Below, piece after piece: positions 35,619 through 48,913 of a stretch of 64,000 bases of DNA. The position numbers and the translations under genes were made by a program. The notes below the pieces were generated by a model that was not told the DNA's origin, did no database searches, and worked only from the letters and a program-made list of their open reading frames with translations. The DNA comes from Acidimicrobiales bacterium (GTDB taxonomy: Bacteria > Actinomycetota > Acidimicrobiia > Acidimicrobiales > CATQHL01): positions 1,894,321 through 1,958,320 of the forward strand of contig OZ220687.1 of NCBI GenBank assembly GCA_965116465.1, in the 5' to 3' direction. Positions within the stretch are counted from its first letter, which is position 1. The number at the start of each line of letters is the position of its first letter.

Positions 35619-36365
35619 TCAGTCCAGTTTGTACGGGCGGAAGCCTCCGTCCACTTGTACGACGTCGCCGGTGACGAACGACGCCGCATCTGAGAGCAGG
35701 AACAGTACGACCTCGGCGATCTCCTGCGGCGTGGCGAACCGATCCACGGCGTGCGTGGCCTGGGCGGCGTCGCCGTCCACGAGCCCCGACGCCACCGCCC
35801 GCTCCAGCAGCGGCGTCGCCACCATGCCCGGCGCCACGCAGTTGACGCGAATGTTGTGCTCGGCCCACTCGACGGCCAGAACCTGCGTGAGCCCGCCGAC
35901 GCCCGCCTTCGACGCCGTGTAGGGCGAGCGACCGGGGAAACCGAACCACATCGCAATCGAGCCGACCGTCACGATCGAACCGCCGCCGGCGTCGCGCATC
36001 GATCGTCCGGCCGCCTGGCACCAGTAGAACGTGCCCGACAGGTTCACATTGATGACCCTTTGCCAATCCGCGGCGGCCATCGTGAAGCTGTCGCCGGCGA
36101 TCTGGATCCCCGCACAGGTCACCAGGTGGCCGATGGGTGAGCGCCAGGCCAGGATCTCCTCGGCAGCGCGGTTCACGGCGTCCGGGTCGGTCACATCCGA
36201 CAGCACGAGACGCACTCTGCCGCCGTGGAGCTGCCGGAGCGTTTCCGCTTGGCCTTCGTCGCGGTCGACCAGGGCGCAGGAGACTTCCGGGCGGCGCTCC
36301 AGCAGGCTCTGGGCCACTTGCAGGCCGATGCCGCTGGTGCCGCCGGTGATGACCGCCACGCTCAT
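35619..36365 (-). CDS. Short-chain dehydrogenase/reductase
   Basis: TGGTSGIG, YTASK, RVNCVAPG, TGDVVQVDGG. Confidence 0.93.
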   Translation of the reverse strand: MSVAVITGGTSGIGLQVAQSLLERRPEVSCALVDRDEGQAETLRQLHGGRVRLVLSDVTDPDAVNRAAEEILAWRSPIGHLVTCAGIQIAGDSFTMAAADWQRVINVNLSGTFYWCQAAGRSMRDAGGGSIVTVGSIAMWFGFPGRSPYTASKAGVGGLTQVLAVEWAEHNIRVNCVAPGMVATPLLERAVASGLVDGDAAQATHAVDRFATPQEIAEVVLFLLSDAASFVTGDVVQVDGGFRPYKLD

Positions 36366-37483
36366 GTGTCACCTCCCAGACTTCGGGCCACGATTGCCCG
36401 GTGGATGTCGTTGGCTCCGTCCACGATCTGATTGACGGCGGCTTCACGCGCCAGGCGCTCCACGGTGCCGCTCTCGAGGAATCCCCAGCCTCCCAGCAGT
36501 TGCATGGACTCCTGCGTGACGTGTCGGGAGGTCTCCGAGGCGAGCACTTTGGCCGCCGAGACGGCCGGCTCGGCGGACGCTCCGGCGTCGTCGGCCGCGG
36601 CGTCGAGTTCGCCTGCGGCGGTCTGGAGGTAGGCGGCCGTGGCACGAACCCGCACGGCCAGGTCGCCCAATCGTTGCTGCACCGCCCCGAGCCGGCTGAG
36701 CGGCCGACCGAACCGCTCGGTGCGGGCCGTGTAGTCCACAGCCAGATCCAGCGCCTCCTCGGCGCCGCCGAGCGCCAGCCCGGCCGTGTTCAGCCGGCTG
36801 CCCAGGAGATGCGGTCGCAGCTCCGCCATGCCCTTGCCGGGCGTGCCGATGAGGTGCTCGGCCCCCAGGAGGCAGTCGCCGAAGGTTGCCTCGCAGATGT
36901 CGAGGCCGCGCAGTGCCAGTGTGGGGCCCATCGATTCGATCCTCACGCCGGGCGCGTCGGTCGGCACCACCAGCATCGAAGTGCCCTTGCCGTGACGTGC
37001 GAGCACCAACAGGTAGGGCAGCCGGTTGGCGTTGGGCAGGAAGGCCTTCCCGCCGTCAAGCTGCAGGTCGGCGCCGACCGGAGTCACCGTGCTTGCCAAG
37101 CGTGACAGGTCGTTGCCCGATCCCGCCTCGTTGATCGCCAGCATCGACAGGCAACGGCCCTCGTGGATGGGAGCCCCCCAGCGGTCCCACTGGTCGTCGT
37201 CGGCGTGGGCCCCCAGGTAGCCGGCCACGACGTTGTTCACCAGCACGGCCCCGCAGGCACGGTAGACCCGCCCGAGGGCTCGGGCCACTTGGACCACCTC
37301 GGTCCACGGTCGGGGTTCGCCGCCGCGCTCCTGTGGCGTGCGCAGGGCGCTCAGCCCGAGGTCGCGAGCCAAGCCCTCGAAGGTGCCTGCCGGGATGCCG
37401 TGACGCTCCCAGCCGGCCACGTTCGGGGCCACAGCGGCGCGCGCCGCGGCGCACAGAGCCCTCACCTCGGCCGTTGGCTTCAC
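36362..37483 (-). CDS. Acyl-CoA dehydrogenase-fold flavoprotein (Asp in catalytic loop), copy 1
   Basis: LAINEAGSGND, DGGKAF, RFGRPL, MQLLGGWGF, QIVDGANDIHR. Confidence 0.88.
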   Translation of the reverse strand: MKPTAEVRALCAAARAAVAPNVAGWERHGIPAGTFEGLARDLGLSALRTPQERGGEPRPWTEVVQVARALGRVYRACGAVLVNNVVAGYLGAHADDDQWDRWGAPIHEGRCLSMLAINEAGSGNDLSRLASTVTPVGADLQLDGGKAFLPNANRLPYLLVLARHGKGTSMLVVPTDAPGVRIESMGPTLALRGLDICEATFGDCLLGAEHLIGTPGKGMAELRPHLLGSRLNTAGLALGGAEEALDLAVDYTARTERFGRPLSRLGAVQQRLGDLAVRVRATAAYLQTAAGELDAAADDAGASAEPAVSAAKVLASETSRHVTQESMQLLGGWGFLESGTVERLAREAAVNQIVDGANDIHRAIVARSLGGDT

Positions 37484-38535
37484 GCCTCGCGGTCCCGGTC
37501 GATCCGGCGGGTTACGCCCTTGGACAGGCAGAAGCCCGAGAAGAACACCGAGTGAGAGGCGTTGCCTTCGGTGCCCCCGGCCACAAGAAGGTTCAGATCC
37601 TCGGGCGACTCACAGATGAGCACTCGATCGCCGTCGGTTGTCCAGTCCCCCTGTGGGATGTTGCCCTCGGGCGGGAAGTCGCTCAGTGGCACCTTGGCGG
37701 CTTCCCAGAGTTCGGCGCGCAGTTGCTGCTTGGTGTAGCCGGCGCGCACGAACACCCCGGCATGCGCCGGGCTCATCATCAAACTGGGCGTGCCCCGGGA
37801 GAAGAACTGGCTGGTGGCAGTGCTGCGCATGGTCTTGGCAAGCATCTTCAGGAGCGACGGGGCCGTCCACCAGACGGCAGTGCTGTTGATGACCGACTCG
37901 ATGCCAGTCACCGTGACCACCGAATCCGAAGCGTCGTAGCCCTTGGTGACGTGCAATGGTTCCCAGGGACTGGACTCCTCATCCTCGGCGACGCAGAGTG
38001 AGTACTTGGCGGGGCTGCCGTGAGTGGCCTGATCGATACCCACGTAGGCCCCGCCCACGTTGCGCATGGCCAGGCGGATCGCTCGCCCGATGGTGGCATT
38101 GGCGCGGTTTCCCGGGCCCAGGAGGTTGCGGTCGGTGTTCATGTCGATGGCCCGGCGGATTGGCCCGTTCACGATCAGAAGCGGCGTCGCCGGGTTGGTG
38201 GTGGCCTGGATGGCGTGCAGGTTGAACAACTGCTCGCACATGGCTGAGACGGCAGTCACGATCACCGGCATGTATTCGGGACGGCACCCCGCCATGACCG
38301 CGTTGACAGCCAGCTTCTCCACGGTGGCGACGCCCCGCTCGGGGTCCATGACGCCCACCTCGTGGTTGGCCCGCATGCCGGAGCCGGCCACCATGGCGGC
38401 GACGCGCGCCGGCGTGGGCATGACGACCGGCAGCCCATCGCTGAGATCCTGCTCGTGGAAGAAGTCCTGGAGTTCGTCGGGCCCGGCGGCTTCGGGAACC
38501 TCCAGGAGGCGAGACGTCAGCGATCCGATCGCCAT
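37480..38535 (-). CDS. Conserved 351-aa protein of unknown function, partner of the UGxC selenoprotein
   Basis: SDGLPVVMPT, TVEKLAVNAVMAGCRPEY, IVNGP, GPGNRANATIGRA, HGSPAKY, AEDEESSPWEPLH; 7 nt after the selenoprotein stop; GTGA overlap with the ACAD. Confidence 0.85.
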   Translation of the reverse strand: MAIGSLTSRLLEVPEAAGPDELQDFFHEQDLSDGLPVVMPTPARVAAMVAGSGMRANHEVGVMDPERGVATVEKLAVNAVMAGCRPEYMPVIVTAVSAMCEQLFNLHAIQATTNPATPLLIVNGPIRRAIDMNTDRNLLGPGNRANATIGRAIRLAMRNVGGAYVGIDQATHGSPAKYSLCVAEDEESSPWEPLHVTKGYDASDSVVTVTGIESVINSTAVWWTAPSLLKMLAKTMRSTATSQFFSRGTPSLMMSPAHAGVFVRAGYTKQQLRAELWEAAKVPLSDFPPEGNIPQGDWTTDGDRVLICESPEDLNLLVAGGTEGNASHSVFFSGFCLSKGVTRRIDRDREA

Positions 38536-47696: not shown

Positions 47697-47806
47697 GCGG
47701 GCCGCGGTGGTCTGGGGGCGCCCGGCTCGTGATGCCTGTTGCGGGTGCTGGGCCGACCGGGGAACGTCGCCGGGTGATGCCGCGCCGGGCCCGCTGGGAG
47801 GGTGCC

Positions 47807-48913
47807 TCAGCGGCGTTCGGCCAGGCCGAGGGCGATGATCGTGCGGTGAAGGTCGTTGGCGCCGTCCACGATCGGTCCGACCGCCGCTTCGCGCAGCAGG
47901 CGTTCGACGGTGCGCCCCTCCAGCAGCCCCCAGCCTCCCAGCAGGTGCATGGCCTGCGTCGCCACCTCGACGGCGACATCGGTGGCGAAGATCTTGGCGG
48001 CGGAGATCCTGGAATCGGCGCTGTCGCCGGCGTCGAGTGCAGCCGCCGCGGCCTGCAGGCAGTCGGCGGCCGCCGTGGTGCGAGCGGCCATGTCCCCGAG
48101 GCGTTGCTGTACTGCTCCGAGCGCGCTGAGCGGCTGTCCGAAGCGCACCGTCGAGGCGGTGGAGGCGACGGCGAGGTCGAGTGCCTCCTCGGCGGTGCCC
48201 AGGAAGAGGCCCGCGGACAGCAGGCGGCCTGCCAGCAGGTGGGGGCGAAGCTGACCGAAGCCCGCCCCGGGCCGGCCGATGATGTGATCGGGGGGCAGTA
48301 CGCAGTCGTCGAAGCGCACCGCGCAGAGGTCCAGGCCGCGCGGCGCCAGTACCGAACCCATCGAACTGATCGTCACGCCCGGAGTGTCCGTCGGTACGAC
48401 CACCAGCGACGTGCCGCCGCCGTGGCCCGTCACCACGAGCAGCCACGGCAGCGAGCCGGCGGCAGGGATGAAGGCCTTCTCGCCGTTGAGGCGCAGTTGG
48501 TCGCCGTCGGACTTCAAGGAGCAGGTGAGCGCTCCGAGGTCGTTGCCGGCGCCGGGCTCGTTGATGGCCAGTCCCGCCAGAGCCGTCCCGTTGGCGATGG
48601 GCGCCCCCCAGCGCGCCCACTGGAGGTCATTGGCATGCTCGCCGAGCAGGCCTGCGATGAGGTTGTTGTAGAGCGGGAGGCCGAGGCTGACGTACACCCG
48701 TCCGACGCTGCGACAGATCTCGACGACATCGTTCCAGGGGCGCGGGTTGCCGCCGCGGCTCTCGGGGACCCGCATGGCGCTGAGCCCGAGTTCGGCGGAG
48801 ACGGCGATCGTCGCCTCCATGGGCAGACCGTGTCTCTCCCAGCCGGGGATCTCCGGTTCGACGACCTCGCGAAGGCGCCGGAGGACGTGCGCGGCGCGGC
48901 GGTCGGCGCTCAT
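47807..48913 (-). CDS. Acyl-CoA dehydrogenase-fold flavoprotein (Asp in catalytic loop), copy 2
   Basis: LAINEPGAGND, LNGEKAF, RFGQPL, MHLLGGWG, PIVDGANDLHR; clear paralog of 36362..37483. Confidence 0.88.
   Translation of the reverse strand: MSADRRAAHVLRRLREVVEPEIPGWERHGLPMEATIAVSAELGLSAMRVPESRGGNPRPWNDVVEICRSVGRVYVSLGLPLYNNLIAGLLGEHANDLQWARWGAPIANGTALAGLAINEPGAGNDLGALTCSLKSDGDQLRLNGEKAFIPAAGSLPWLLVVTGHGGGTSLVVVPTDTPGVTISSMGSVLAPRGLDLCAVRFDDCVLPPDHIIGRPGAGFGQLRPHLLAGRLLSAGLFLGTAEEALDLAVASTASTVRFGQPLSALGAVQQRLGDMAARTTAAADCLQAAAAALDAGDSADSRISAAKIFATDVAVEVATQAMHLLGGWGLLEGRTVERLLREAAVGPIVDGANDLHRTIIALGLAERR

Follow-up and report, generated by a model that had tools for sequence, protein, structure and literature searches.

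Two acyl-CoA dehydrogenase-fold proteins with Asp at the position of the catalytic base

The question raised by this locus is what reaction is carried out by two paralogous proteins with the acyl-CoA dehydrogenase (ACAD) fold that have Asp at the position of the catalytic Glu of the medium- and short-chain enzymes (MCAD and SCAD). The two genes are located in a 64,000-nucleotide stretch of contig OZ220687.1 (positions 1,894,321 to 1,958,320; assembly GCA_965116465.1) from an Acidimicrobiales bacterium, referred to here as the window, and all coordinates are given relative to its first nucleotide. ACAD1 (P0001, 373 aa; 36362-37483, minus strand) is a predicted Asp-type flavoprotein encoded inside an operon, and ACAD2 (P0002, 368 aa; 47807-48913, minus strand) is a lineage-specific paralogue of ACAD1. 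The reading that we favor, with a probability of roughly one half, is that both are flavin-dependent α,β-dehydrogenases of CoA thioesters, in which the Asp would serve as the base that removes the alpha proton. In this reading, ACAD1 would carry out one step of a catabolic operon that is conserved in sponge- and coral-associated Acidimicrobiia and in which its gene has a fixed place.

Both proteins have the three Pfam domains of the fold (PF02771, PF02770 and PF00441), all above cut-off (E 8.6e-33 and 6e-31 for ACAD1 and ACAD2). Over 355 residues, the two sequences share 57% identity. The translation of ACAD1 includes NQIVDGANDIHR, and that of ACAD2 includes GPIVDGANDLHR. When the proteins were compared with PDB chains using phmmer, the D of IVDGAND aligned under the E of IYEGTSEV in 4n5f, 4m9a and 5ol2, the last of these being the Clostridioides butyryl-CoA dehydrogenase. 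The residue at the position equivalent to MCAD Glu376 is Asp355 in ACAD1 (codon 36419-36421, minus strand), and Asp350 of ACAD2 (codon 47864-47866, minus strand) is likewise aligned with the MCAD-type base. We compared 34 family members with 124 other ACADs in a 158-sequence MAFFT alignment. The base column contained Asp in all 34 members of the family; among the 124 others it contained Glu in 86, Asp in 16 and Gly in 14. The alternative base position, that of the isovaleryl-CoA dehydrogenase (IVD) and long-chain (LCAD) type, is the residue before a conserved Arg in helix G, and it is occupied by Ser229 in ACAD1 and by Gly in ACAD2. In the outgroup, Gly at the MCAD position (14 sequences) is balanced by an equal number of sequences with Glu at the helix-G position (14). 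The original prediction, that both proteins have Asp in place of the MCAD/SCAD Glu and that neither has the IVD/LCAD-type Glu, was thus confirmed by the PDB comparison and the alignment.

Both genes are under purifying selection. The ratio of nonsynonymous to synonymous substitution rates (dN/dS) between close relatives was 0.13-0.14 for ACAD1, 0.06-0.15 for its operon neighbors and 0.335 for ACAD2. Because the Asp is invariant in the family and both genes are under purifying selection, it is neither a chance nor a sequencing feature.

A diverged family with a probably remodeled flavin site and a predicted polar pocket

The family is confined to two clusters (680 and 291 bits) among 1.84 billion representatives of clusters at 50% identity, and the next match was at 198 bits. 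In a maximum-likelihood tree, its 34 members grouped in a single clade, the stem of which was 1.39 substitutions per site long. The family was not found in 300 other genomes of the class, searched with one query and with six candidates scored per genome. By sequence, ACAD1 and ACAD2 belong to a small, deeply diverged, uncharacterized ACAD subfamily with a rich signature.

The signature consists of 25 positions at which the family residue occurs in at least 90% of the members and in at most 6% of the outgroup. Several of them replace residues that are nearly universal elsewhere. N124 is at the S142-equivalent position, which is Ser in 108 of the 124 outgroup sequences; P150 replaces the T168 equivalent (Thr or Ser in 111); T255 replaces the R281 equivalent (Arg in 123); and G266 replaces a Gln found in 106. 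R257 is at a position that is Gln in most of the outgroup. In 29 of the 34 members, N118 takes the place of the Thr of the TEP motif (T136 equivalent). Other family-specific residues are P224-H225, Y74-R75, N83, R53 and P57-R58-P59-W60. The family residues at the positions of Y133, T136 and T168 of MCAD are Leu, Asn and Pro; in MCAD these three residues hydrogen-bond the isoalloxazine of FAD, anchoring it (PMC2667288).

The scaffold of the fold is retained. E119, D125, F258-G259, the GGxG motif (G331-G332-x-G334), R230 and R362 are invariant in the family, as are the Asp and about 70 other positions in all, and the conserved Gly beside the Asp and the Arg seven residues downstream of it are both kept. 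Judging from this pattern, the flavin site probably survives with remodeled hydrogen bonding, particularly at N5.

The family-specific residues of the pocket are polar or cationic. Helix G contains a Pro-His kink (Pro224-His225) and a polar stripe formed by His225, Ser229 and Thr233, spaced i, i+4 and i+8, at positions that are mostly small or hydrophobic in other ACADs. Helix E contributes Tyr74-Arg75. Combined with Tyr74-Arg75 and Asn83 of helix E, the stripe on helix G suggests a polar, possibly anionic, acyl group. The shorter side chain of Asp may combine with these residues to adapt the pocket to a polar substrate.

Asp at the base position by itself

Asp at the base position was found in 16 of the 124 nearest non-family cluster representatives (13%), together with the canonical TEPxAGSD, ITNG and RxQFG motifs; because the 124 sequences were the top matches of an Asp-bearing query, this share may be somewhat inflated. 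Ten of these non-family Asp-type ACADs were scanned against NCBIfam. None of the ten reached the cut-off of a named equivalog, and they scored 250-400 bits on generic ACAD models. Among the 16 ACAD-fold open reading frames (ORFs) of the genome, the MCAD-type Glu is present in five, the IVD-type E-R in several and Asp in three. The third Asp-type protein is encoded outside the window (G000:C1:176937-178436) and has the motifs VDGADEVHK and RLGPGRIHHAMR. It matched 4hr3 (1.7e-87), human ACAD11 (2wbi, 6.4e-81) and mouse ACAD11 (8v3u, 7.4e-80), and by these matches is a genuine ACAD10/11-type protein.

An Asp base is thus fairly common among uncharacterized bacterial ACADs and by itself is no sign of exotic function; when alone it is weak evidence of an unusual one. 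The original prediction had concluded from the Asp that the reaction or substrate is non-standard. ACAD1 and ACAD2 are indeed non-standard ACADs, so that part of the claim stands, whereas the Asp alone is not diagnostic. The case for non-standard chemistry comes from the family-specific replacements and not from the Asp alone.

Fold and closest known enzymes

An AlphaFold2 model of ACAD1, built from the family alignment, had a pLDDT of 90.6 and a pTM of 0.90. The best Foldseek matches were short-chain ACADs, with TM scores of 0.86-0.90 and 23-30% identity, and the fold matches of the family included the ChsE4-ChsE5 and Tcur3481-Tcur3483 structures. In a separate search, independent of Foldseek and ranked by Z score, isobutyryl-CoA dehydrogenase came first (Z 46.0; rmsd 2.0 over 368 residues), followed by an IVD-like enzyme (44.7), glutaryl-CoA dehydrogenase (GCDH; 44.0), PigA (43.4) and 3-sulfinopropionyl-CoA (3SP-CoA) desulfinase (42.2). 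Podospora nitroalkane oxidase (NAO; 3mkh) was at rank 15, below 14 ACAD-type representatives (Z 38.9, 16% identity); ACAD11 had a Z score of 34.8 (18% identity), and methylsuccinyl-CoA dehydrogenase scored 33-34. Comparison within the genome by BLAST gave a similar picture: ACAD1 was 29-31% identical to the Glu-type paralogues (110-114 bits) and 24% identical to the ACAD11-like protein (81 bits). Since ACAD1 is closer to Glu-type paralogues, the Asp looks as if it was acquired independently on a short/branched-chain ACAD background.

The likeness to SCAD (2vig), isobutyryl-CoA dehydrogenase (1rx0) and the Burkholderia enzyme 4n5f extends over the whole length of the three-domain fold (TM 0.88-0.90, at 24-30% identity) and includes the position of the carboxylate, the helix-G Arg, the FG and GGxG motifs and an Arg seven positions beyond the base. 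The family differs from these enzymes in having Asp for Glu; in having N, N, P, T and G for the T136-, S142-, T168- and R281-equivalents and the Gln; in the insertion signature Pro224-His225; and in a deletion of one to two residues in helix E.

Two more distant systems also have an Asp base. According to published work, the catalytic Asp of ACAD11, D753, is near a helix that carries R626, P629 and the motif HCMR (PMC10802472), which bears out the earlier statement that ACAD11-type enzymes use Asp. The family shares with ACAD10, ACAD11 and LvaC the Asp base, the His of the motif D-G-x-(D/N)-(E/D)-(V/I)-H, and, five positions ahead of the helix-G Arg, a residue that is either basic or polar. 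This residue is R626 in ACAD11 and His225 in the family, and in an hmmalign alignment of the ACADs of the genome, His225 shared a column with the R626-equivalent Arg of the ACAD11-like protein. The family differs in having xPHLLxSR instead of RLGPGRIHHAMR, with P629 and HCMR not matched. In the ACAD10/ACAD11/LvaC systems, an APH (aminoglycoside phosphotransferase) kinase, fused or encoded nearby (LvaA), phosphorylates the 4-hydroxyacyl-CoA. There is no APH kinase in the operon or the window and none is fused to the ACADs; all five APH genes of the genome are outside the window. ACAD11 chains were also absent from the 45 PDB matches of ACAD1 at E <= 1e-20 (phmmer). Kinship with ACAD10/11 was rejected on the Z score of 34.8, the lack of an adjacent kinase and the 24% identity to the separate, true ACAD11-like gene of the genome.

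NAO has the ACAD fold and reportedly uses an Asp at the same position (Asp402). It is an oxidase that acts on free nitroalkanes, whereas ACAD1 and ACAD2 are flanked by enzymes that form CoA esters and electron transfer flavoproteins (ETFs) are encoded in the genome. NAO was absent from the top Foldseek rows and, given its rank and 16% identity in the wide search, kinship with it was not supported. The original prediction had pointed to the Asp base of NAO and ACAD10/11-type enzymes, and kinship with either was not supported: in both sequence and fold, the nearest enzymes are the short/branched-chain ACADs (Z 44-46).

GCDH and (2S)-methylsuccinyl-CoA dehydrogenase resemble the family in having a conserved helix-E Arg (Arg75 in ACAD1), although not in the same column as the GCDH-like Arg; they differ from it in that the base of the family is Asp, not Glu. 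We considered whether Tyr74-Arg75 corresponds to a GCDH-like 'Y-R' motif in helix E. This was rejected, as the GCDH-like ORF of the genome has its Arg three alignment columns further towards the C terminus than Arg75. Arg252 of methylsuccinyl-CoA dehydrogenase and the Arg of GCDH bind the carboxylate of the substrate (PMC5798300).

The operon around ACAD1

All of the family-bearing operon loci are in metagenome-assembled genomes (MAGs) of Acidimicrobiia. Many of the operon-bearing MAGs have isolate names or titles that refer to sponges or corals (for example, Candidatus Spongiisociaceae, COS4, RHO1, APA, SB06xx and Plut), and this provenance suggests a symbiont-specific pathway. The gene order p351-ACAD-SDR-BKACE, behind the genes for a TRAP transporter, CmlAB-like proteins and a UGSC-type protein, was identical in 22 loci from public genomes.

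Read in the direction of transcription (minus strand throughout), the operon begins with a tripartite ATP-independent periplasmic (TRAP) transporter consisting of a fused double DctP, DctQ and DctM (40862-44947). The DctP domain matched TRAP binding proteins solved in the EFI structural-genomics effort (E 1e-54). The solute-binding protein (42758-44947) is a single chain made up of two complete DctP domains, and this fusion was also present in homologous loci, at 618-677 aa.

The next genes encode an AtuA-family protein and a DUF4387 protein (39076-40865), which by their PDB matches are homologues of CmlA and CmlB. The AtuA-family protein matched 9erq_A (E 1.5e-77) and the DUF4387 protein matched 9erq_B (E 1.5e-16); 9erq and 9evf are titled citramalate lyase CmlA/CmlB. 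The Cml enzyme of Raoultella splits citramalate directly into pyruvate and acetate, as described in a preprint. We found nothing functional on DUF1446/DUF4387 in the literature, and the CmlA/CmlB matches give a lyase-type lead for the long-unknown AtuA family in this operon. The homology would indicate a citramalate-like, branched hydroxy-dicarboxylate intermediate.

Two further proteins are encoded immediately upstream of ACAD1. One is a UGSC-type (seleno)protein (38543-39079) with a single TGA that is read through (38798-38800). Its C-terminal half matched NF041046 UGSC_fam (E 1.5e-15, below cut-off), and the annotation of homologous loci splits the protein between two small genes (93 aa and 66-74 aa). 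The other is a 351-aa protein, p351 (P0003; 37480-38535), which had no Pfam, NCBIfam or PDB match. An Atlas search with p351 returned unnamed or auto-named clusters, one of them with a partial UGSC association, and the protein is 73-81% conserved across loci. It is translationally coupled to ACAD1: the GTG start of ACAD1 overlaps the stop of p351, and the stop of ACAD1 overlaps the start of the short-chain dehydrogenase/reductase gene SDR1.

SDR1 (35619-36365; Pfam adh_short_C2, E 4e-55) is directly downstream of ACAD1, and it is followed by a putative beta-keto acid cleavage enzyme (BKACE; 34531-35538), a candidate source of the acyl-CoA substrate of ACAD1. BKACE scored 100-114 bits on the NCBIfam Kce and 3-oxoadipate transferase models, below cut-off, and PF05853 was found in homologous loci. 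The gene for a small CxxC protein follows that of BKACE. No ETF or carrier-protein gene was found in the operon; three EtfAB pairs are encoded elsewhere in the genome.

A cytochrome P450 and an acyl-CoA ligase (44872-47696, plus strand; ligase at 46185-47696) are transcribed away from the operon and towards ACAD2. At least 20 loci have retained the P450, and in the closer clade the ligase is beside it. The ligase, which had been named in the original prediction as a source of CoA esters, proved to be a real AMP-binding enzyme. Just past the 3' end of the operon there is a FmdA_AmdA (formamidase/acetamidase) ORF on the plus strand (32900-34255; Pfam E 4e-20), and this neighbor of the operon is conserved in L004 and L005, the two closest relatives. 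Farther away, positions 2925-15027 (plus strand) contain ORFs of about 1223 and 1350 aa, then smaller ones, then ORFs of 724 and 490 aa. By size and order only, these fit rpoB, rpoC, rpsL/rpsG, fusA and tuf, which would place the catabolic island in the core chromosome.

ACAD2 as an apparent lineage-specific duplicate

Five related genomes have the operon copy only, among them the two closest (95% and 90% identity in ACAD1); two of the five are draft MAGs, in which a second copy could be unassembled. The only orthologue of ACAD2 that we found was P0018, on a 2-kb Logan contig. In the maximum-likelihood tree, ACAD2 and P0018 were on a long branch (0.78) that was weakly sister to the ACAD1 clade. 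At 16 positions, ACAD2 departs from a residue otherwise conserved in 90% or more of the family; the changes include R75V, R40A, S229G, T233S, A237F and Y89L, and several of the family-specific pocket residues have reverted in ACAD2 alone. It retains every family-invariant residue, including the Asp. On this sequence pattern, ACAD2 looks like a recent, faster-evolving duplicate, restricted to one lineage, with an altered and more hydrophobic pocket. Its substrate is probably another acyl-CoA, related to that of ACAD1.

Directly upstream of ACAD2, on the same strand, is a second short-chain dehydrogenase/reductase gene, SDR2 (49093-49845, minus strand), contained in a 453-aa ORF; the match to Pfam adh_short_C2 covers residues 205-451 of that ORF (E 2.2e-55). 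A plus-strand ORF at 48967-49932 had no family match and was in the wrong phase for the G+C content of third codon positions. We considered whether SDR2-ACAD2 is a copy of the ACAD1-SDR1 module. This was rejected, as SDR2 shares only 41% identity with SDR1 (over 148 residues) and the two gene pairs have opposite orders.

Proposed pathway and evidence that weighs against it

In the pathway that we propose, the TRAP transporter would import a hydroxy- or keto-carboxylate, which the SDR would oxidize. BKACE would then make an acyl-CoA from the beta-keto acid and acetyl-CoA, with release of acetoacetate; alternatively, the ligase would activate the acid. ACAD1 would dehydrogenate a small polar acyl-CoA, possibly one bearing a carboxylate, at the α,β position, and the electrons would be accepted by one of the three ETFs whose genes are outside the operon. 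Further steps would convert the product towards the tertiary hydroxy acid on which the CmlAB-like lyase acts. Several of our observations would be in keeping with a dicarboxylyl-CoA resembling methylsuccinyl- or glutaryl-CoA: there is an Arg in helix E, BKACE is weakly related to 3-oxoadipate:acetyl-CoA transferase, and the operon has a citramalate-lyase homologue. Arguing against that fit, Arg75 does not appear in the GCDH Arg column of the alignment.

Several findings weigh against the assignment of ACAD1 and ACAD2 as CoA-thioester dehydrogenases. The named NCBIfam ACAD models (AcrC, cyclohexanecarbonyl-CoA dehydrogenase, 3SP-CoA desulfinase, CaiA, GCDH and RedW/PigA) gave at most 158 bits with ACAD1 and ACAD2, compared with cut-offs of 430-850; with these models, ordinary Asp-type ACADs reach 250-400 bits. 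Five near-universal ACAD residues are replaced (T by N118, S by N124, T by P150, R by T255 and Q by G266), and since these include flavin contacts, normal FAD binding and redox tuning cannot be assumed. The AlphaFold2 model is less certain at the active-site loop, where the block with Asp355 has a pLDDT of about 66. At depth, no other protein of the operon is as poorly conserved as the ACAD (41-57%, compared with 71-88% for AtuA, p351, BKACE and DctM). Finally, no enoyl-CoA hydratase or thiolase that would take up an enoyl-CoA product was found in the operon.

Alternative chemistries

Some of the same findings would be accounted for by a redox-neutral reaction, that is, a flavin-assisted elimination, desulfination or isomerization in which the flavin is reduced transiently or is structural. 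There are precedents in ACAD10/11 and LvaC, which convert 4-phosphoacyl-CoA to 2-enoyl-CoA, in 3SP-CoA desulfinase and in 4-hydroxybutyryl-CoA dehydratase. Such a reaction would explain both the missing hydratase and the remodeled surroundings of N5, where the family has an invariant Pro in place of the hydrogen-bond donor to the flavin (T168 equivalent). The lack of a thiolase is in keeping with it as well. In ACAD11, likewise, the base is an Asp, and the neighboring helix carries polar residues and a Pro (PMC10802472); His225 of the family is in the column of the R626-equivalent Arg of the ACAD11-like protein of the genome. The 3SP-CoA desulfinase model was also the third- or fourth-best NCBIfam match, and its structure was among the higher-ranking ones (Z 42.2). 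However, no APH kinase is fused or adjacent, the five of the genome being elsewhere; HCMR and P629 of ACAD11 are not reproduced; ACAD11 was missing from the phmmer matches and was well below the nearest folds (Z 34.8 vs 44-46); and no enzyme that would install a leaving group was identified. On balance we consider a redox-neutral reaction, although the strongest of the alternatives, unlikely. In a more specific form that we regard as rather unlikely, the family would be a flavin-assisted eliminase, isomerase or desulfinase, in which the Asp base and the remodeled N5 site evolved independently of ACAD10/11, acting together with the 351-aa and UGSC proteins in an undescribed route by which sponge symbionts degrade a polar acid from the host.

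It is also conceivable that ACAD1 and ACAD2 are oxidases or dehydrogenases of substrates that are not CoA thioesters, such as nitroalkanes, amines or acyl groups bound to the thiol or selenol of a protein, for which prolyl-PCP and acyl-ACP dehydrogenases would be the models. The reported Asp base of NAO is consistent with this, as is the presence of prolyl-carrier-protein dehydrogenase among the better NCBIfam matches (third for ACAD2, 126.7 bits), with PigA at Z 43.4. The location of the UGSC (seleno)protein and the coupled 351-aa protein directly upstream of ACAD1 also speaks for it. Against these points, NAO ranked fifteenth by fold (Z 38.9), no carrier-protein gene was found in the operon, and BKACE and the CoA ligase, which make CoA thioesters, flank the ACADs. 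A substrate of this kind therefore seems improbable.

The replacement of near-universal FAD-contact residues, together with low scores on all curated ACAD models and the lowest conservation in the operon, would fit an inert or scaffold subunit, one without normal flavin chemistry that the operon retains for structural reasons. We find this quite improbable, since the Asp and about 70 other positions are invariant and dN/dS is 0.13, and the Arg that is present two residues away from the missing canonical one (T255/R257) would point to compensation and not to decay.

The suggestion in the original prediction that ACAD1 and ACAD2 form a heterotetramer is very improbable as an obligate arrangement, even though they are 57% identical paralogues in one genomic island and ACAD heterotetramers occur in actinobacterial steroid catabolism (ChsE4-ChsE5 and Tcur3481-Tcur3483 being among the fold matches), because there is no asymmetric degeneration as in the obligate FadE α2β2 pairs, in which one subunit lacks the base and the FAD site: ACAD2 keeps the family invariants including the Asp, as ACAD1 does; a single copy suffices in the operon of 22 loci and in the five related genomes (two of them draft MAGs); and ACAD2 is a long-branch, faster-evolving duplicate in a separate transcription unit behind its own SDR.

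Implications

The comparisons made here establish the fold, the position of the Asp, its conservation in the family, the link to the operon and the purifying selection; flavin binding, a CoA-thioester substrate, the redox reaction and the order of the pathway are inferred. Dehydrogenation of a polar CoA thioester remains the reading that we favor for ACAD1, with a related reaction for ACAD2. ACAD-fold enzymes without the Glu base have repeatedly turned out to perform unexpected chemistry, including nitroalkane oxidation, phosphate elimination from 4-hydroxy acids and 1,4-dehydrogenation. The family described here pairs an invariant Asp with the loss of several near-universal flavin contacts, and it is fixed in an operon beside a selenoprotein, a newly recognized CmlAB-type lyase and BKACE. 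The larger novelty is the surrounding operon and not the Asp alone. Assignment of the substrate would show how far the flavin site of ACADs can be remodeled, and would help to decode a symbiont-specific catabolic pathway.

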